Shown: positions 5,345 through 41,349 of the stretch, in pieces
How positions within the stretch are numbered: position 1 is the stretch's first letter
Layout of the letters: the number at the start of each line of letters is the position of its first letter
Source: a virus
Taxonomy: Duplodnaviria > Caudoviricetes
Direction: 5' to 3' (one strand)
DNA: 60,283 nucleotides
Virus record (IMG/VR): IMGVR_UViG_3300015360_000004
Location: 1 to 60,283 of that record
Program-made: the position numbers and the translations under genes
Notes under the pieces: model-generated
What the model saw: only the letters and a program-made list of their open reading frames with translations
Databases searched by the model: none
What the model was told of the DNA's origin: nothing

Positions 5345-5535
5345 ATAATATCGCGATTATAATAATAATATCGCTATTATTTTAGTCGTTACAACAAATA
5401 CTGTGTCAACAACGAATCTGCCTCAGATTCGCTCCGATTGACCAAGTAGTAATGATTCCATTATCGTACGTACGCTTAGGTCATTCGCCCGTGACGGGAA
5501 CATGGGCGTTACCGTATCTGCGATGTTTCCATTAT
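5345..5535. promoter_or_regulatory. Cluster of RYRAT-N6-ATYRY palindromic sites upstream of terS
   Basis: ATAATatcgcgATTAT 5345, ATAATatcgctATTAT 5365, GTAATgattccATTAT 5449, GCGATgtttccATTAT 5520. Confidence 0.7.
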
Positions 5536-5547
5536 TCGCCGCTCTTC

Positions 5548-5636
5548 CGCTCTTAACGAACAGCGTATACTATATTTCTTATAATAATAATATTATTATT
5601 ATTAAATAATCATATATATGCACTTCGTTAAGAGCG
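5548..5636. repeat. Long AT-rich imperfect palindrome A (homologous to 41247-41349)
   Basis: Arms cgctcttaacgaa / ttcgttaagagcg around a perfect 22-bp core ATAATAATAATATTATTATTAT (5581-5602). Confidence 0.9.
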
Positions 5637-21150: not shown

Positions 21151-21489
21151 TTATCCATCCCCCCGCCTTCCCTCGAATTCCTGGAGGTGGTAGTGAATGG
21201 GCATACTGAGGGAGAGCGCCAGGTCACGCTCAAGCCGCGCTCCGTGTGACTTGGGCCAAAGCGGGAGCATGAGTACCTCGTCGCAGTCTAGCATCGCCTT
21301 CAGCGAATTCCGCATGTAGAAGGACCAGGGCTTATCCCTCGGCGCGTCCTTTCCGTCCGTGGACTCGGTGACCTCGTGCGGGCTGACGACGTTGAACCCA
21401 CGCGCGCGGAGGTAGTCGGTGGCCTTGCGGAACTCCGGGAAGTTGAAGTCCGGAATACCTGTCATCGGGCCGGCTATGTATATCTTCAT
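21151..21489 (-). CDS. DUF4406 / nucleoside deoxyribosyltransferase-like protein
   Basis: KIYIAGPMTG..DFN.PEF, VVSP, LDCD.V.ML..W..S.GA.LE. Confidence 0.9.
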   Translation of the reverse strand: MKIYIAGPMTGIPDFNFPEFRKATDYLRARGFNVVSPHEVTESTDGKDAPRDKPWSFYMRNSLKAMLDCDEVLMLPLWPKSHGARLERDLALSLSMPIHYHLQEFEGRRGDG

Positions 21490-22085
21490 AGCTCCTCCTG
21501 TGTAACGCCCTTGGGCGACTCGTCCTTCTCTAAGGTCTTTTTGAATAGCGTCCTAGCCGCGGAATGAAAGATGACTATGCCCTCCGGTTTCATGAATCCC
21601 GGGGCGGCTACGCTTCCACGTTCCGCCAGCGCCTTCAGCGTCCCATCTACGAACTGGGTCTCGAACGGCCCCCTGAAAAGTACTGGGACGACATTACAGC
21701 AGGCCGGCCTTGACTCCCCCCACTTCGCCGCGTTGAAAAGCGAGAATCTCTTCTCCGTCAGCCCGTACTTACGCTGGATGCCTTGTCCCCACCATTCACC
21801 GAAGTGCGCGCCTGGCCCGAGGTTCTTAAGGTCCTCGAAGTTGGCCAATGCCCATTTGGCGAAGCCGTAGTTATCGTCCGATGGAGTAATCCAGCGAGTA
21901 CGGCTACCGGCATACATCGCCCAGGTCGAGGCGTCAGGCCCGTACCAGTAGCCGAGCATCTTGTCATCGTGATAGCCCTTGGCGATTGGCACATTGCAAA
22001 TCCGGCCGTTGGTGCCGTCAATTTTCTCGGTTATTACCACCTCACGGCTCAGGCGCGCAATCTTCGTGAAATCCTTGAATATCAT
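21486..22085 (-). CDS. ATP-dependent RNA ligase (Rnl2-like nucleotidyltransferase domain)
   Basis: Motif I TEKIDGTN, GSR, FGEWWG.GIQ, FSLF, EGIVI, FKK; start MIFKDF by ATGA overlap. Confidence 0.88.
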   Translation of the reverse strand: MIFKDFTKIARLSREVVITEKIDGTNGRICNVPIAKGYHDDKMLGYWYGPDASTWAMYAGSRTRWITPSDDNYGFAKWALANFEDLKNLGPGAHFGEWWGQGIQRKYGLTEKRFSLFNAAKWGESRPACCNVVPVLFRGPFETQFVDGTLKALAERGSVAAPGFMKPEGIVIFHSAARTLFKKTLEKDESPKGVTQEEL

Positions 22086-24964
22086 TTGACCACCGGCTTT
22101 ATTCCAAGCTCTTCCGCCCGCTCCTCCAGGGAACGCCCCTTCGGTCTTTTCCATTGGGGCTTGGGGTTATGGGCCTTTGCCCAGTTCGCCGCGTCCGCGC
22201 TGTCCTTCGCGATGACTTCAGGCGCCAGCTCTTCCATCGTCTTGATGGTCCTGTTGAACTCGGCCACGAGCTGGTCGCACCTGTCCATAAATCCGTAGAC
22301 GATGGAACCAGACCAATCCACAACGAGAAGCGTGGTTACCGCCCAGAGGATGTTGGTCAAAAGCCTTATGCGGGTCGCGGGTTGTAGTTTGTTATTCATC
22401 GCTAGCTTCCTCCTGCTGGTTATGTTCCCTCAGCCAAGTCTCGTACATAGCCCTGGCCCGTTCGACGTCGGCCTGTTCCATGCATCCCGTGTCTACCCAG
22501 CTGATGGTGAGCCCCTTGACGAGCTGAGTGAAGAGAGTTTGAATCCGCTCCTCCCGCTCCTGCATGGCGTTGAACTTGTCAAATGAGCTCATCGCGAATC
22601 TCTCTGGGCAGGCTTGTTGATTCGACAATCTCGAACGCAAGCGGGATTGTCAGAGCCCTGGTCACCGTCTCATGGCCGAGGGTGTCTGCCATTGCAAGAA
22701 TATTGGCTTGTTCCTGCGGATAGCCTTTGATGATGTAAGCCGCGGCCTGGATGTCAATAAGGTCGCTTTCGGCCTTGGTCACCTCGATGAACCGCTTAAT
22801 CATCCTCGGCCTCGTCTTCCTTGCCTGCGCCTGGGATGTCCCCTTTGACGTCCGGGTCCCCGGACTCTTTCTCCTTCTTCTGCCGCTGAATCTCGTCCGC
22901 GTACTCAGCGACGCGGTGCACCTGCCCCAGGGAATCCGTAATGCAGTGGTCTGCCACGGTGAAGAGGTCCCGGTAGTCGATGAAGAAAGGGCGCTTCTTT
23001 CTTACGCACTCCTCGTCCAGGTACACCTCTGTCAGTTTCACGTCACGGTCGTAGTACATTCGCGGCTCCTATCCCTTAGATTATTTTCAAGGCCTGGGCG
23101 ATGTTGGCGGCCATGAAGGCGGCCAGCATTCTCTTCTTGATGTAGTAGCTCTCGTACTGGGGGTCGCACATGATTTGCATCGCGGTCCCGATGTCCTTTA
23201 TGAAGACCTGCCAATCGTCTTCCCCATCCTCATTGAACTGGCACAGGATGACCGGCTCGTTGGAGTGGACGTCCTGGTGGACGTAGCAGTCGACGCCTAG
23301 CCATTGACCGATAAAGGTGCAACAGGCACAGGTCCGCCGCGTATAAAGAGGGCCTACAATCACCAGCGGCTCCCGGCCTGCTTCACGGCGTTCAGAAAAT
23401 TAAGCCTCTGGGCTTCCTTCCATACAAGCTTGCAGACACGGGACATGCTGTCCTTTCTTGCGCTGCACCTCTGGGCGATAGTCCGAACAGTGTCGAATTC
23501 CAGCAAGTGGTCCAACCCGCACAAATCCTTAATCTCCTTTAGGTAGGCCAGGGCCTTCTCTACATGAAGCCGGTCAAACCCGGTTTCATTTTGGATTTGC
23601 CTGTACTGCGTGTCAGAGAGCACCGATGGATTCCTTTGTCAGCTCCTCTCCACTCGTGTGGAGGTTGATGAGCTTGGAGATTAGCGCTGTCTCCACCGGC
23701 AAGGCGACTGACTTCGGAAATTCGCTCTTAGCCATCTTAGCCTCGATGCAGTGCCCGCTCCGGAATACCTTAGTGCTGGCAAGGCGCATCTTGCCCTCGC
23801 CGTCCTGAAAGAAGACCATCCACTTGCTATGCTTTTTCATTCCGCTTTCTCCATGTTCGTGCTGTAGAACTGCCCTTCCCTGCTGCGCCACACCATTTTG
23901 GGCGGGTCACACATCGCGAATCCAACCTCGCCAGGCAGCAGCTTAAGCTTCAGGCTCTCCAGGTCATCTTCCTGGAGGAAGACGCATCTGGGGAACCCGA
24001 AGAAGACGCCGTTCGAGGCTGTTACCATCGTCAACGTCGAATGCTCTGGGAACCCGCTTAGCCGAAATCTCACGTCGGCTTCGCCTCGGCCATGAATCCA
24101 AAGCTGAGCCAGGAGACAACCAGCCAGTCCTTATCCCAGAGGACCCAGGGGAACCAGTGGAATTCAAGTAGGTCGATTCCGATGGCTACATCAAGCTGGA
24201 GGGCTTGGAAGGTTAGGGTCAGGCTGCCCGGTCCCACAAGTACACCCGCGGCAATGATTCTGTAAAAGTTCTTTTCGTCTTTCATTGAAGCCCCTGGTTA
24301 TTCCTAGCTGGACTTCGTTATCGCCGGTTATCCCCCACCGCTCCCGCGGGTCTATCCGATACCCCAGCCACTGAAGGAACCTTGCTAGGCGCTTTAACGC
24401 CGACGGCGAGGGTGAACTTGGGTCCCACTCCCCGCTCCGGTAGTGGCGCACGAACAGCGGGCTCATGCGGCATATATCTCGAATCAAGACGAGCCACCAC
24501 CTTATAGGCGACGTCGGCCAATCGCTTAGTCTTCGTGTCTCTTCGCTTGCCTCGTACATATTCCGCCTCCATCTTTGCGGCGAATTTCTGTAACGCGGTT
24601 CGGACGCCGCCGTAGAAGTCCACCTTGTTGCACTGAACCAGTCCGCCGGTTAGAATTGCGCGGATAGCCTCATCTGCCGTCATGCTCTTACGCTGCTCCA
24701 AGTTCATACAAAGCCCCCTAGCTCCAAGTGGTGAATGAAATTCGTCGGCGAGAAAACCATGCCCCCGCCGGGGAAATAAACAGGCTCCATCACGTCCAAA
24801 TACCGCCTGCCGTCATCGGAGACGAAGAAAAGCGAGTCCAACTCCTCCACGAGGACATACTTGCCCCAGAAGGTGAGGGGAAACTTTCGCTTCCTGGCGT
24901 CCTTCGCGAAACACTCCTGCCGCTTTATGTGTACGACCTCGCGAAGGAAAACCGGCTTCAGCAT
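22082..24964 (-). other. Run of small hypothetical genes
   Basis: Coupled ORFs 22082-22399, 22579-22803, 22796-23059, 23076-23363, 23360-23623, 23837-24073, 24070-24285, 24318-24707, 24704-24964. Confidence 0.6.
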
Positions 24965-25792: not shown

Positions 25793-26068
25793 TCATCCCT
25801 TCACCAGGCTCTTCTCAACTGCCCACTTCGGGAACTCGCCGTACTTCGCCTTCCAGAGGATGGCGACCTGCCGCTCGCGCTTCTTCAGCTTCCAGGAAGC
25901 GTCAAGGAAGTCGGCGCGCCACCTGTTGACCGTGTTTTTCATGTGCTCCTGTTTCTCTGCCAGAGCCTCGTTGCGGAGCGCCAGGCGCTTCAGTTCAGCC
26001 CGTTGCAGGAGGAAGAGCCAAGCAAGGCTGGCCAACGGGGCAACGAGGAAGAGATTGAGATACAGCAT
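25793..26068 (-). CDS. Membrane-anchored coiled-coil protein (possible lysis accessory)
   Basis: N-terminal TM helix then a coiled coil; directly downstream of the lysin. Confidence 0.5.
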   Translation of the reverse strand: MLYLNLFLVAPLASLAWLFLLQRAELKRLALRNEALAEKQEHMKNTVNRWRADFLDASWKLKKRERQVAILWKAKYGEFPKWAVEKSLVKG

Positions 26069-26763
26069 TAGGTCTTCTCCTTTTTGTACATGAGCGTGAG
26101 GGACGGCGGAATGATTTCACCGCTGTTCATCAGCGCATAGAAATCGTTGAGGTACATGACGAACCGGTCGAGGTACCTGGAAGTGCCGATTGGGTAGCAC
26201 TTTATCCGGAATCTGTTCTGGGTGCTGGAGTTGGCGTATACGCCGCCGGCGTTGTAGCTCGCGGCCACGAGGATTGGGTCAAAAAGGGATTTCTTCCGCT
26301 GGTCATCCATGTAGGAAACGCCGGCCTGTATGCTGTTCTCTGGGACGAAGAGCCACTTCCGGGTGACCGTTCCGCCGGTCACGCCGCGCTTCAGCAGGCT
26401 CTCCTTTGCGGTGGAGAGGAGGGTCTGCATTATCCCGGCGCTGACCTTATTCGGAGTCTTCTCGTCCGAAACGAACCCTGGTTCCTGCCGGATGTCGTAG
26501 TATGCCTTGGAGTCCTCGCCGGCGATGATTGCCACGATTAGGTCAGCTGGGACGAGATACTCCCTCGACCACTTCTCGATAATGTCGGAATAGTTGTGCC
26601 ATATCCTGGACACGGTGACCGGCTCGCCCCTGGTGCGCTCATAGAAGGCGAGGTCCATTGACCCGTTGGTCACGGGGTTCGGGTTCCTGACCAGAAGACC
26701 GTTGGTGGTCATCTTCCACTCGACACTGCCCTCAAACTTCTTATGCCAGTCGAATATGTTCAT
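26068..26763 (-). CDS. SLT-type lytic transglycosylase (probable endolysin)
   Basis: LIVAIIAGED (catalytic Glu), SAGIMQ, PENSIQAG..Y, AASYNAG. Confidence 0.85.
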   Translation of the reverse strand: MNIFDWHKKFEGSVEWKMTTNGLLVRNPNPVTNGSMDLAFYERTRGEPVTVSRIWHNYSDIIEKWSREYLVPADLIVAIIAGEDSKAYYDIRQEPGFVSDEKTPNKVSAGIMQTLLSTAKESLLKRGVTGGTVTRKWLFVPENSIQAGVSYMDDQRKKSLFDPILVAASYNAGGVYANSSTQNRFRIKCYPIGTSRYLDRFVMYLNDFYALMNSGEIIPPSLTLMYKKEKT

Positions 26764-27283
26764 CTTTTCCTCTGCTCCTTTAGGCCGACTTTACAGACGG
26801 GGTAATACCCGCCGCGATTCTCGAAGGTCTTGCTCCTCGGGAATAGGTCCTTGTGGTGGACGGTATTGCAGTGCGAGCAGTGGAGATAATCCTGGATGAT
26901 GACCAGCATCTCGTCCACCACTTTGGGATTGCTGCATTTCTCGCGCAGGATGGTCGCGTAGAGGTCGATGTCAACCTTCATAGCGCCCTCTCAATCTCCG
27001 CAATCTCGTTCTTGACGCGGTTGAGGGAGTGCAGCTTCTTCTGCTTCTCCGCCAACCGTTGGAAGTTCAGAATGTTCTTCTCAAGCCCGGAAGCCCGCTG
27101 CTTCATAGCCGCGAGCTCGAAGGCCCAGACGTCCATCCTGTTCTTCATGGCCTCTACGCGGCCGGTAAGACTGACGACGTCCTTGCGGTACTCCTCAATC
27201 TTGTTTGCGCGGAAGATTATTCCATCGCAAAGCTCCGCCATCTGTGCCTGGGACTTCCTCAGGCTCTCTTCGTAGGAAAGCAT
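26760..27283 (-). other. Two small genes: Zn-finger-like (26760-26981) and coiled-coil (26978-27283)
   Basis: CSHC...YPVCK motif; heptad-like pattern. Confidence 0.6.
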
Positions 27284-27309
27284 TTTGACTCCTGGTAACC
27301 TTTTTTGGT

Positions 27310-27375
27310 CAGCTCCTTCCCCAGGGAGCCAGCACGGTTTTCACGCCTCGCAGGAGTAGCTGGGGAACGCTACTC
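27310..27375 (-). ncRNA. Structured RNA with two hairpins and complementary (kissing) loops
   Basis: GAGUAGC-GUUCCCCA-GCUACUC and UGGCUCC-CUGGGGAA-GGAGCUG; loops pair over 7 bp. Confidence 0.6.
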
Positions 27376-27728
27376 TAGGCGATGCCTAGCTCGGCCTTGA
27401 GCTTGGCCTCCTCCGCGCGCAGCTTCGCGAGCTTGGCCATGCCCTTGGCCTTGGGGTCCTTGCTATTGACATGTTTATCCAGGCGGTCCTGCGCGAGGTC
27501 GACCATGTACTGAAGCTTCGCCTTGACGCCTTCGAACTTGAACTTGGGGTCTTCGACGTGGGCGGTGAAATCCGGTCCCTTGATGCCGATGATGAGCTTT
27601 CCGGCATCGTCTTTGGTTACGGGGATTCCCCGTTCATCGACCACCAGCTCGAACTCCGCTTTGGGGGCCTTCGCGGGTTTTACTGGCTTTTCGGCTGCTG
27701 CGGCGGGTTTCTTTTCGTTCTTGGCCAT
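27375..27728 (-). CDS. Small Lys/Ala-rich basic protein
   Basis: 117 aa, KPAAAAEKPVKPAKAPKA N-terminal tail, strong RBS and strong codon bias. Confidence 0.85.
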   Translation of the reverse strand: MAKNEKKPAAAAEKPVKPAKAPKAEFELVVDERGIPVTKDDAGKLIIGIKGPDFTAHVEDPKFKFEGVKAKLQYMVDLAQDRLDKHVNSKDPKAKGMAKLAKLRAEEAKLKAELGIA

Positions 27729-27747
27729 GGTGTCCTTCCTCGTTTCC

Positions 27748-27853
27748 TATAGACATAGCTTGCCTAATACCCCGTAGGGTTCATCAGGAGGGAGTCGCTA
27801 TCTGACCCTCGACTATTGGCGGGATTTCCGCCTCAGTTTCGGCTTACTGTCTT
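27748..27853 (-). ncRNA. Type II hammerhead ribozyme candidate with a 16-nt core insertion; predicted cleavage between 27811 and 27810
   Basis: GCC-GAAAC-[stem III]-GUC-[stem I GAGGG/CCCUC]-CUGAUGA-[ACCC UACG GGGU AUUA]-GGC; loop I AUAGC complements GCUAU downstream. Confidence 0.7.
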
Positions 27854-27990
27854 ATGTGCGGGTGGTGCACTCTACACTTAGTATCGACCTGGGAGCCTGA
27901 CAGAAACTGTCCCCGGCCCCCTTTCGTATCTGGGCGGCGGTATTCGTCCTATTCCATGATTTATTCGATGCCGCGTCTCTCATATTTACA

Positions 27991-28048
27991 ATTCTATCGC
28001 CCCGTAATTCGGAAGTACATGTTTATTCGGTATTAATATTTTTATTAC
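27991..28048 (-). promoter_or_regulatory. Promoter of the ribozyme transcript with an upstream palindromic site
   Basis: TGTACT 28014-19, N17, TAGAAT 27991-96; TTAATatttttATTAC 28033-48. Confidence 0.7.
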
Positions 28049-28122
28049 ATGAATGTGACTCTTTATTGGAGTAACAGCCACGCTAATTTAAATTCGTACA
28101 CACACCGGCTACCTTTTCGCCC

Positions 28123-28150
28123 AATAAATAAAGGGCCTTCAGAGGCCCCT
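28123..28150 (-). terminator. Intrinsic terminator ending the replication operon
   Basis: AGGGGCC TCTGAA GGCCCTT TATTTATT. Confidence 0.8.
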
Positions 28151-28179
28151 ATTAATACCACACTATCATTGTCACTACT

Positions 28180-30309
28180 TCACTTTCGGATAATTTTTGT
28201 CCTAATCCTCACGGTCTTAGGCGCAGAATCCTCAGGCTTTAACCTGCCTGTTACCCCATAAAGACCGGCCTTCTTCGCCAGGTCCGCAAGGTCCGGATGT
28301 GCGACGTACATGCTCAGCAATCCGTGAGAGCCCGCAGTTTTCTTTATAATCCTCAATGCCTGGAGGTCCTCCGCCACCCTGTGCATGGTGGACTGCGAAA
28401 GGCCCGTCCTTTCTATCAGCCACTTACTGTCCTTCGGCTCCTCGGGAGTATTGGACAGCAGAAGGTTGATAATGTATTCGAACCGGTCCGGGCAGGTATC
28501 GCAGGCGACCTGGCGAACCAGGCGAAGCTCATCCTCTCCCACCTCCGCATGGTCCAGGTAAACCGCTATACCTATGGCCAGCTTGCAGAGCTGCTTGCCG
28601 ATGCGGGTACCTATCTCCTTGATTGGCATGGTAAGCTGCTCCTGGCTGAAGCGGTCCTTCTGGAGAGAAGCCCTCATCCGTGAAACGAACATGGCCATCG
28701 CGGCGACCTGCATCTTGAACTCGGGAGGAAGAATGGGGAAAGTGGGAGGCATGGGCTTCTCAAGCATCCTGTAACAGAGGTCTCCGAGCTCCTCCTTCAT
28801 CTCGTTCTCATGCTCGATTCCATCAATGGCCTTGAGGATTCTTTCCTCCTCGCTTTCCGGGGATAGGTGCTTGTCCAGCCGAAACTTCATGAAGCGCTCA
28901 CCCAGGGAACTCTGGAGCGTGAGGTAGCCGTCAATCGCGTTGGTCACCGCTGCTATGATGCCGAACTTCGACTCATACTTGCGAGTATGCCCGGAGTAGC
29001 TCTTCTCGATTCGTCCGTCATAGATGTCGCGCAGAAGCCCGAATATCTCGTCGCGGGTATTCGGGTGCCCGGACAAGATGGTCGTGAAGTCCTTGATTAC
29101 CAGGACGCGGTTATTGAGCCTGGGCAGGATGCTGGGGTCCGCGCCGTCAATGCCTCGGTGGCCGGAGATTAGTGAAGCCGGCGTCAGGGTCGTCAAAGTC
29201 TCGATGAAAGGGCTCTTGCTAAGCGGCGAGACGAAGGTCGTCTTTCCGCCGCCGGGAGGCGCTACCAGAAACTGCCATATCGGCTCCCCCGTCGGCATCT
29301 TGTTCGCGAAGCAGGTTCCCATCACGACCGTGATTGGGTCGTAGTTAAGCAGTTTCAGGTATTTCGAAAACGCCGCCTCCAGCTCTTTTCGCGTCGGTAC
29401 CACCACGTTGGAAACGGTCTCCGCCTTGACTTCCACCGGGGAATCACGTTCTACCTGGGTATTCAATGAGAACATCTTGTTGAACCGTTCGAATCCGGTT
29501 TTAAGCCCGGTCTTCGTCGCCTTCATGAAATTGTATTCAACCGACTCCAAGACCAGGTCCCGTATGTCATAGCCGTCTGAAACCGCCTCCGGCCATTGAA
29601 GGAACCGGACCTCGGAAGCCACTTCGCGAAGAGCCCTGGCAGATTTCTCCTCGCCCTTCCGTCCCGCCTCGTCATGGTCAAAGCAACAGAAGACCTTCCG
29701 GTCCTTGAAGTACAGGAGCCAATCCTTATTGAGGTTGCCGGCGCCGGGCAACGCCACGACCACGGCGTCATGCGCCAAGAGCTTGAACCAGTACTGGAGG
29801 GCGTACATATCCCACTCGCCCTCGCAGATGTAGACGGGTTTCGAGTTTCCTGGAATATGGTGACAGCCCTTCAAAGGCAGCTTGACTCCCGCGGTCCTGA
29901 ATATCTTGCCCTTCGGCTCCCAATACGAAAGGGCATTCAGCTTGCCCTCCAGGTTGAAGGCCGGAATCATGAAAGCGCCCGTCAATGGGTTCTTGGCCAC
30001 GTCCCCGTAAAATGCCGTTGGAGGTAGGCCTCTATCCTTCGCAAGGGGCATCAGGTCGGCGTTCTTGGTCGTGGTAAGGCAGAACCTGTACCACTGGTCC
30101 AGGAACGTATAAAGGTTTCCAGAGCGGCTGGTATTCTTGGAATCCCACATCCCCGTCTCTTTGTTGACGAAGAACTTGTCCTCCTTCCCTGAGAAAGGGC
30201 AAATGCCGCGGAGGTTTTTACCGTCCGAGGCGAAGCCGCTGAACCTGACTCCGTGCTGGTAGAAAGCGAAGCCCTGCTCGTACTCCTCCTTCAGCTCTTT
30301 AAAGCTCAT
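28180..30309 (-). CDS. Primase-helicase (Zn-finger-like, TOPRIM, MCM-like AAA+, wHTH)
   Basis: CPF..., ICEGEWD, FDHDEAG, APPGGGKT, IKDFTT, GERF. Confidence 0.88.
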   Translation of the reverse strand: MSFKELKEEYEQGFAFYQHGVRFSGFASDGKNLRGICPFSGKEDKFFVNKETGMWDSKNTSRSGNLYTFLDQWYRFCLTTTKNADLMPLAKDRGLPPTAFYGDVAKNPLTGAFMIPAFNLEGKLNALSYWEPKGKIFRTAGVKLPLKGCHHIPGNSKPVYICEGEWDMYALQYWFKLLAHDAVVVALPGAGNLNKDWLLYFKDRKVFCCFDHDEAGRKGEEKSARALREVASEVRFLQWPEAVSDGYDIRDLVLESVEYNFMKATKTGLKTGFERFNKMFSLNTQVERDSPVEVKAETVSNVVVPTRKELEAAFSKYLKLLNYDPITVVMGTCFANKMPTGEPIWQFLVAPPGGGKTTFVSPLSKSPFIETLTTLTPASLISGHRGIDGADPSILPRLNNRVLVIKDFTTILSGHPNTRDEIFGLLRDIYDGRIEKSYSGHTRKYESKFGIIAAVTNAIDGYLTLQSSLGERFMKFRLDKHLSPESEEERILKAIDGIEHENEMKEELGDLCYRMLEKPMPPTFPILPPEFKMQVAAMAMFVSRMRASLQKDRFSQEQLTMPIKEIGTRIGKQLCKLAIGIAVYLDHAEVGEDELRLVRQVACDTCPDRFEYIINLLLSNTPEEPKDSKWLIERTGLSQSTMHRVAEDLQALRIIKKTAGSHGLLSMYVAHPDLADLAKKAGLYGVTGRLKPEDSAPKTVRIRTKIIRK

Positions 30310-41246: not shown

Positions 41247-41349
41247 ACTCTTCCGCTCTTTACAAAGTGTGTACTGACTATTTTTTATGATAGTAATATT
41301 ATTATTATAAGAAATAAGCATATGCACACTTTGTAAAGAGTGGAAGAGT
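41247..41349. repeat. Long AT-rich imperfect palindrome B
   Basis: actcttccgctctttacaaagtgtgta...tgcacactttgtaaagagtggaagagt, centred on taat|atta. Confidence 0.92.

Follow-up and report, generated by a model that had tools for sequence, protein, structure and literature searches.

A hammerhead-like sequence in the leader of a gene for a conserved small basic protein in an uncultured phage

Background

In the sections of Perreault et al. (2011, PMC3088659) that deal with them, type II hammerhead ribozymes (Rfam RF02276) are described as having a GAAA block, a cleavage-site block and a CUGAnGA block in that order, an open stem II that is often only two pairs long, and a pseudoknot, commonly of at least 4 base pairs (bp), that links loop I to the tail just past stem II; their usual home is an intergenic, sense-strand position in a phage leader, ahead of a gene. 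Active natural hammerheads that carry one extra nucleotide (nt) at the junction between core positions 9 and 10.1 are reported in the relevant parts of PMC3705267 and PMC4209133, and according to the text of PMC10085705, whose supplementary alignments might differ, there is no known hammerhead alignment with more than one or two inserted nt between CUGAnGA and the adjacent stems. The element considered here lies at 27751-27852, on the minus strand, of a 60,283-bp phage genome (IMG/VR record IMGVR_UViG_3300015360_000004, positions 1 to 60,283; hereafter the window), in the leader of a gene for a protein of 117 amino acids (aa). It shares with the type II ribozymes the order of the three blocks, a possible pseudoknot between loop I and the tail, and the intergenic site ahead of a phage gene, but differs from them in that a 16-nt hairpin-plus-linker parts A9 from the first stem II pair and in that RF02276 does not match it. 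The hammerheads with a single extruded nucleotide are altered at the same core junction, whereas here 16 nt form a hairpin of their own, which would be unprecedented by the account in the text of PMC10085705.

A second feature of the same unit is a pair of hairpins, H1 and H2, at the 3' end of the 117-aa gene. Loop-loop or 'kissing' hairpin pairs are known from RNA I and RNA II of ColE1, and like them H1 and H2 are two hairpins with loops complementary over 7-8 nt; unlike them, both lie on one transcript, 24 nt apart and just past a stop codon.

With moderate confidence we read this locus as an ordinary phage gene unit that is transcribed on its own and encodes a conserved small basic protein. 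Transcripts of the replication operon would end at a hairpin past the primase gene, and a new transcript would start near an AT-rich box, TAATAAAAATATTA, which heads several gene blocks in the genome. This transcript would carry some 300 nt of leader in which the Shine-Dalgarno sequence is exposed, would be translated to a small basic protein from a phage family that is uncharacterised, and would probably continue into the coiled-coil, lysin and sigma-like genes, as the 117-aa gene has no U-tract terminator after it. Most likely the hammerhead-like sequence does not function as a member of the hammerhead family, since the 16-nt hairpin occupies the place where stem II must adjoin the core. We infer both the ends of the transcript and the lack of cleavage.

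The gene for the 117-aa protein

The gene occupies 27375-27728 on the minus strand, and its ATG (27728) is preceded, at a distance of 4 nt, by the Shine-Dalgarno sequence AGGAAGGA (27733-27740, same strand). Its product belongs to a small uncharacterised family and is made up of a disordered tail rich in Lys, Ala and Pro, a small beta region and a helical hairpin. A word-based protein search returned a single match among 433 candidates, the protein itself. An exhaustive HMMER search of 1.84 billion representatives found 12 proteins at E<=0.001, the query included, and thus 11 distant homologues with 35-45% identity; a profile search added five further homologues. Two long multi-stretch matches, P0004 and P0005, were left out of the alignments as they resemble repeat or coiled-coil matches. 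In the resulting alignment of 15 sequences the Lys/Ala/Pro-rich tails vary in length, and they accompany a conserved G-[IL]-P...G-x-L-I-x-G-I...F segment and a helical C-terminal half with a D/N-P-K motif; the conserved columns are I49, F54, Y74 and P92. An AlphaFold model (predicted local distance difference test, pLDDT, 74; predicted template modelling score, pTM, 0.51) has the same parts, namely a disordered tail, short strands and a helical hairpin.

Within the gene (27413-27563), a contig of 151 nt from a soil metagenome run aligns with 15 differences, and the 12 whose positions are listed all fall on third codon positions, which fits purifying selection on the 117-aa frame. We therefore regard the gene as real and conserved. 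The initial annotation had placed the ATG of a 117-aa open reading frame (ORF) about 82 nt after a predicted ribozyme cut, and both the frame and the distance are borne out, the gene being conserved in the 11 distant homologues. The strong codon bias that it had also ascribed to this ORF is not found: the codon adaptation index (CAI) is 0.726, rank 28 of 37 genes, and the G+C content at third codon positions is 0.78 against 0.77, which is the norm of this genome.

The same soil run holds a second 151-nt contig, which is identical to the phage over 27187-27337, a stretch that takes in H2 and the beginning of the following gene. The run (X2) covers these two segments of the unit and none of the leader, at very low depth. 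A look-up of RNA runs for the region listed none, and a further run, X1, may come from the source sample. The contrast between identity over 27187-27337 and only 90% identity inside the 117-aa gene suggests a mosaic relative in another habitat.

Pfam, PHROGs and NCBIfam hold no family for the protein, a sequence search of the PDB gave a single match with an E-value of 0.47, a protein atlas search gave no usable match, and Foldseek with the model returned no match at E<=0.001 among 48 from the PDB or 280 from viruses. The abundant nucleic-acid-binding protein of the initial annotation is a guess drawn only from the Lys/Ala/Pro-rich composition, tails of this sort being found in nucleic-acid-binding proteins. 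No related locus came from viral contigs searched with the protein, the homologues P0002, P0003 and P0007 and the sub-alignment A4, from metagenome contigs searched with P0002 and P0001, or from genome contigs searched with P0007 and A4, and tblastn for a related locus against phage records gave no match. The contigs on which P0002, P0003, P0007, P0011 and P0012 lie measure 8-61 kb and stem from Logan, ENA and NCBI.

The upstream boundary and the AT-rich box

A terminator-like hairpin lies at 28131-28150 on the minus strand, 30 nt past the stop codon (28180) of the primase/helicase gene. It has eight pairs, five of them G-C, a loop of 4 nt and, following it, UAUUUAUU, and so combines the features of an intrinsic terminator, namely a G+C-rich hairpin and a U-rich tail, TATTTATT, just past a stop codon. 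Its reading as a terminator draws on this position after the primase stop; the number of such sites gives no support, since three were found in the scanned region against 2.3 in shuffles, which is not above chance.

Next comes an AT-rich stretch (G+C content 0.33-0.45 over 27950-28199), in which the promoter- or operator-like box TAATAAAAATATTA lies (28034-28047, minus strand). The motif of this box, TAATAANAATATTA, has 22 overlapping matches with at most two mismatches, against 0.17 expected, and these fall in six places, near 5366, 5590, 14880, 28040, 36996 and 41298, all of which are intergenic by the ORF map and upstream of minus-strand gene blocks. An alignment of four sites shows no variation at 13 of the 14 positions of the box. 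A consensus scan of 26900-28400 for sigma-70-type promoters (-35 and -10 hexamers with a spacer of 16-18 nt) returned 0 sites. The box is thus taken as a promoter from its recurrence at the six places, and of the promoter that the initial annotation had assigned to the unit it is this recurring AT-rich box that stands, whereas no sigma-70 consensus could be found. The wider claim of a self-contained unit after a replication-operon terminator agrees with both the hairpin past the primase stop and the recurring box. The distance from box to ATG is about 300 nt here, about 46-131 nt at four of the five other boxes, and about 268 nt at the box near 5590.

Two large palindromes were seen elsewhere in the genome, at 5548-5636 (22-nt arms, 86% complementary) and at 41247-41349 (25-nt arms, 96% complementary). 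Both have an AT-rich centre in which the box TAATAATAATATTA lies, each palindrome is followed by the common word AAGAGCGGAAGAG, and the letters of the arms differ between the copies while their complementarity is kept. The palindrome at 41247-41349 is located immediately upstream of the helicase with which the replication block begins. These palindromes could be operators, bidirectional promoters or replication origins. Near the 117-aa unit itself there is a perfect 10-nt inverted repeat, GGTATTAATA (28029-28038) and TATTAATACC (28150-28159), whose halves are 111 nt apart and bracket the terminator-like hairpin and the promoter-like box; with at most one mismatch the repeat word occurs five times, against 0.84 expected.

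The leader

If transcription starts near the box, the non-coding leader (27729-28033, minus strand) is about 300 nt long. It contains no convincing small ORF: a 43-aa frame has a CAI of 0.464, whereas even the lowest value among the 37 reference genes is 0.553, and a small coding ORF was rejected as none of the candidates looks coding. There is no tRNA in the leader, and the genome holds no repeat of it at other places. The leader had been described as structured, a description that its folding energies do not support. The 311-nt leader folds with a z-score of 0.05, and 53 of 100 shuffles fold as well; the 136-nt core region reaches a z-score of -1.62, and 13 of 200 shuffles are as good.

A switch at the ribosome-binding site (RBS) had likewise been proposed. 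The complementarity behind it is present, in that UCCCUCCU matches the RBS AGGAAGGA at seven of eight positions, and the duplex energies are nearly balanced, at -9.1 kcal/mol for UCCCUCCU with the RBS against -8.8 kcal/mol with its stem I partner. In ensemble folds from four 5' ends, the post-cleavage end among them, the RBS bases are partly unpaired to a similar degree. An RBS switch is possible, but these folds do not predict one, because the mix of RBS exposure is similar for all four ends.

Anatomy of the hammerhead-like element

In the type II reading the element is closed as a whole by an outer helix, AGACA/UGUCU. Its parts follow one another on the minus strand as GCC (11.3-11.1), GAA, stem III, GUC/G (the slash marking the predicted cut), stem I, CUGAUGA, a 16-nt insert, GGC (10.1-10.3), AA and GCUAU, and the letters of the core are GCC-GAA-A(15.1)CUG...UAGU(16.1)-C17/G(1.1)AGGG...CCCUC(2.1)-CUGAUGA. 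The GAA occupies 27840-27838, A15.1 (27837) pairs with U16.1 (27812), and CUGAUGA occupies 27787-27781. All 13 conserved core positions are present, as are the GAAA block, the A15.1-U16.1 pair and a base other than G at the cut site. Stem I has 5 bp (GAGGG/CCCUC), and stem III has 4 bp with a 5-bp extension, GGCGG/CCGCC. The cut read from this arrangement would follow a GUC triplet, between C17 (27811) and G1.1 (27810) on the minus strand, and would leave the ATG 82 nt beyond it.

The departure from the hammerhead plan lies in stem II. No base pair adjoins CUGAUGA (0 adjacent pairs), and the first possible stem II pair, G27764-C27841, comes only after a 16-nt insert between A9 and G10.1 (27765-27780, minus strand), which consists of a hairpin, ACCC-UACG-GGGU, and the linker AUUA. 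The hammerhead of the initial annotation is accordingly upheld in its core, stems I and III and GUC cut site, but lacks an adjoining stem II and has no Rfam match at any threshold tried.

Is the element a hammerhead?

Judged by its sequence, the element falls outside the hammerhead family as defined, because no stem II pair is adjacent to the core, no Rfam model matches, the contiguity rule between CUGAnGA and its stems is broken, and the loose form of the motif is common by chance. At the gathering score Rfam gave 0 matches in the whole window. At E<=10 there was no hammerhead among the seven matches in a 1.1-kb stretch, nor among the two in 151 nt. Run alone on the genome at E<=10, RF02276 picked out two other places and not this element, with 11.2 and 10.3 bits against a cut-off of 37, and at that threshold it also matches in 11 of 14 control genomes. 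CUGANGA occurs 42 times in the window, counting both strands. The loose partial motif, which leaves out stem II, matches the real genome twice, once within coding sequence at 1661, and arises in 36-39% of shuffled genomes.

Two further candidates were discarded. A partial match to RAGATH-33 (36 nt, 27819-27855, minus strand), which overlaps the GAAA block and the stem III hairpin, scored 14.7 bits against a cut-off of 120.4 and was judged noise because 8 of the 14 control genomes match as well; a literature search for the name RAGATH-33 returned nothing. A type I or III hammerhead, or a reading with the ACCC/GGGU hairpin as stem II, was rejected because no GAAA follows that hairpin.

The strongest rival to an ordinary gene unit takes the element for a self-cleaving type II hammerhead that represents a new structural variety, in which the 16-nt hairpin is extruded between A9 and G10.1, a 3-bp GGC/GCC helix serves as stem II, and a pseudoknot aligns stems I and II. 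We consider this unlikely though credible, and a number of observations weigh in its favour and against our preferred explanation. Past the insert, GGC (27764-27762) pairs with GCC (27843-27841), which supplies the canonical G10.1-C11.1 pair. Two nt beyond this helix the tail GCUAU (27755-27759, minus strand) is complementary to AUAGC in loop I (27797-27801), with a duplex energy of -5.9 kcal/mol; this possible pseudoknot, together with the short stem II, matches the type II consensus as PMC3088659 describes it in the sections on that type, and it carries weight only on the premise that the insert is accepted. The insert itself folds into a tidy hairpin with a UACG loop and sits at the sole core junction where natural hammerheads tolerate an extra nucleotide, going by the relevant parts of PMC3705267 and PMC4209133, in which a single nucleotide is inserted at this very junction in active ribozymes. 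The sense-strand phage leader is also where type II hammerheads usually occur. The core positions, the A15.1-U16.1 pair, the GUC triplet and stems I and III are all there, and a strict partial motif (stem I of at least 5 bp, stem III of at least 4 bp, span of at most 70 nt) arises in only 1.5% of 400 shuffled genomes, while the combination of stem II, with its G10.1-C11.1 pair, and the pseudoknot occurs in 0.44% of 200,000 shuffled tails when the left part is kept constant. The hammerhead-type fold, at -33 to -34 kcal/mol, is within 0.4-1.4 kcal/mol of the minimum of -34.4 kcal/mol, the energy of the pseudoknot being uncounted. Moreover, insertion variants could have been overlooked by earlier searches, because covariance-model searches penalise long inserts.

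Against these points stands, in the first place, the rule in the text of PMC10085705 that known hammerheads have at most one or two nt between CUGAnGA and the stems, and with it the failure of every Rfam model to match. The chance figures are also less telling than they appear, as the thresholds of the strict motif and all other descriptors were chosen after the site had been seen, and the site itself was picked from a very large scan; under liberal rules, which allow inserts on either side and let any part of the 13-nt loop pair, stem II and the pseudoknot appear in 3.3% of random flanks. Finally, the minimum-energy fold contains a competing hairpin in which CCUGAU pairs with AUUAGG, and this sequesters C3-A6 and G10.1-G10.2, so that part of the core is buried.

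The twin hairpins and a non-catalytic role

The hairpins H1 and H2 lie at the 3' end of the unit. H1 (27354-27375, minus strand) has a 7-bp stem and the loop GUUCCCCA, starts at the G of the stop codon and is part of the minimum-energy fold. H2 (27311-27330, minus strand) has a 6-bp stem that includes one G-U pair, carries the loop CUGGGGAA, and is followed by no U-tract. The two 8-nt loops, GUUCCCCA and CUGGGGAA, are complementary over 7-8 nt. Among 20,000 dinucleotide shuffles of the 97-nt spacer, paired hairpins with a loop complementarity of at least 7 nt arose in four, and with at least 6 nt in 46. Judged from the letters and these shuffles, the loop complementarity is real and unusual, and the kissing-loop complementarity at the stop codon reported in the initial annotation is thus confirmed. 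It is also left unexplained if the locus is an ordinary gene unit, which counts against that reading. H2 does not appear in the minimum-energy fold computed without pseudoknots, and the region has a z-score of -1.53; the loop letters could form an ordinary long-range helix instead. The soil contig that covers H2 is identical there and is therefore uninformative on covariation.

The absence of a U-tract after the hairpins marks the H1/H2 element, by its sequence features, as something other than a classical terminator. The RBS and ATG (27283) of the next gene lie within 30 nt of H2, and this proximity suggests transcriptional read-through.

A reading that would account for the twin hairpins is that they and the four-helix junction of the leader, closed by AGACA/UGUCU, form a non-catalytic regulatory or stabilising RNA, the hammerhead core letters being coincidental; the elements could bind the basic 117-aa protein, as in autoregulation, or block exonucleases. 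To us this is improbable. The four-helix fold is the minimum-energy structure of the leader element and includes the UACG-tetraloop hairpin, but its z-score of -1.62, like the -1.53 of the 3' region, is unremarkable, and no Rfam family matches. The complementary loops are rare by chance, as given above, though one of the two hairpins that present them is missing from the minimum-energy fold. CCCUCCU can pair with GAGGG or with the RBS at similar energy, which speaks for this reading. The protein's tail resembles those of nucleic-acid-binding proteins, but no fold or family match gives the protein such an activity.

Setting in the phage genome

The favoured explanation, a separately transcribed gene unit, also has to be seen in its genomic setting. 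The record is a complete virus genome of 60,283 bp with direct terminal repeats, from an uncultured phage. Of the long ORFs with family matches, almost every one is encoded on the minus strand, which also carries all features of the unit. Along the direction of transcription the head and tail genes come first, followed by a helicase, exonucleases, a Sak4-like protein, a DNA polymerase and the primase/helicase (28180-30309), and then by the 117-aa unit. On its 3' side follow, in order, a coiled-coil ORF, a small Cys-rich ORF, an SLT lysin and a sigma-70/ECF-like ORF, the last of which scores below the cut-offs of the sigma-70 and ECF models. Farther downstream lie an RNA ligase-like ORF (21486-22154; Pfam RNA_ligase, 38 bits against a cut-off of 27), an integrase and a terminase. 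RNA end-healing enzymes were not found among the ORFs scanned, where ten further ORFs gave only RadC and Vsr; the scan took in some of the ORFs, and no absence is claimed.

Directly after the SLT-domain lysin comes an ORF of 91 aa whose N-terminus is hydrophobic; the two lie at 25793-26068 and 26068-26763 on the minus strand. Together they look like a lysis module that lies downstream of the 117-aa unit in the same orientation.

A blastn search of phage records revealed no close relative. In IMG/VR there is one relative only, L002, identified through its primase (34% identity). It has no spacer 3' of the primase gene, and the profile of the 117-aa family (A1) matches nothing in its genome.

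Implications

Were the hammerhead active, cleavage between 27811 and 27810 would shorten the leader by about 200 nt, and the mRNA would begin with a 5'-OH and the hairpin of stem I. The released RNA of about 170 nt, the protection of the mRNA at both ends and the part played by the phage RNA ligase, all proposed in the initial annotation, would be conjectural further steps. The element would then be the first natural hammerhead to break the contiguity of CUGAnGA and stem II, and it would mean that a class of insertion-bearing hammerheads, located in phage leaders, systematically escapes searches with covariance models and descriptors. The range of structures known for the most widespread self-cleaving ribozyme would become wider, and models used in searches would have to permit hairpin inserts at the 9/10.1 junction.

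If instead the favoured verdict of an ordinary unit holds, the locus is a further phage gene unit whose small basic protein is uncharacterised, and it brings the caution that all core letters of a hammerhead and two of its stems can occur without meeting the definition of the family. The TAATAANAATATTA box and the two palindromes that contain it may be useful marks for the annotation of a phage that has no other relatives.

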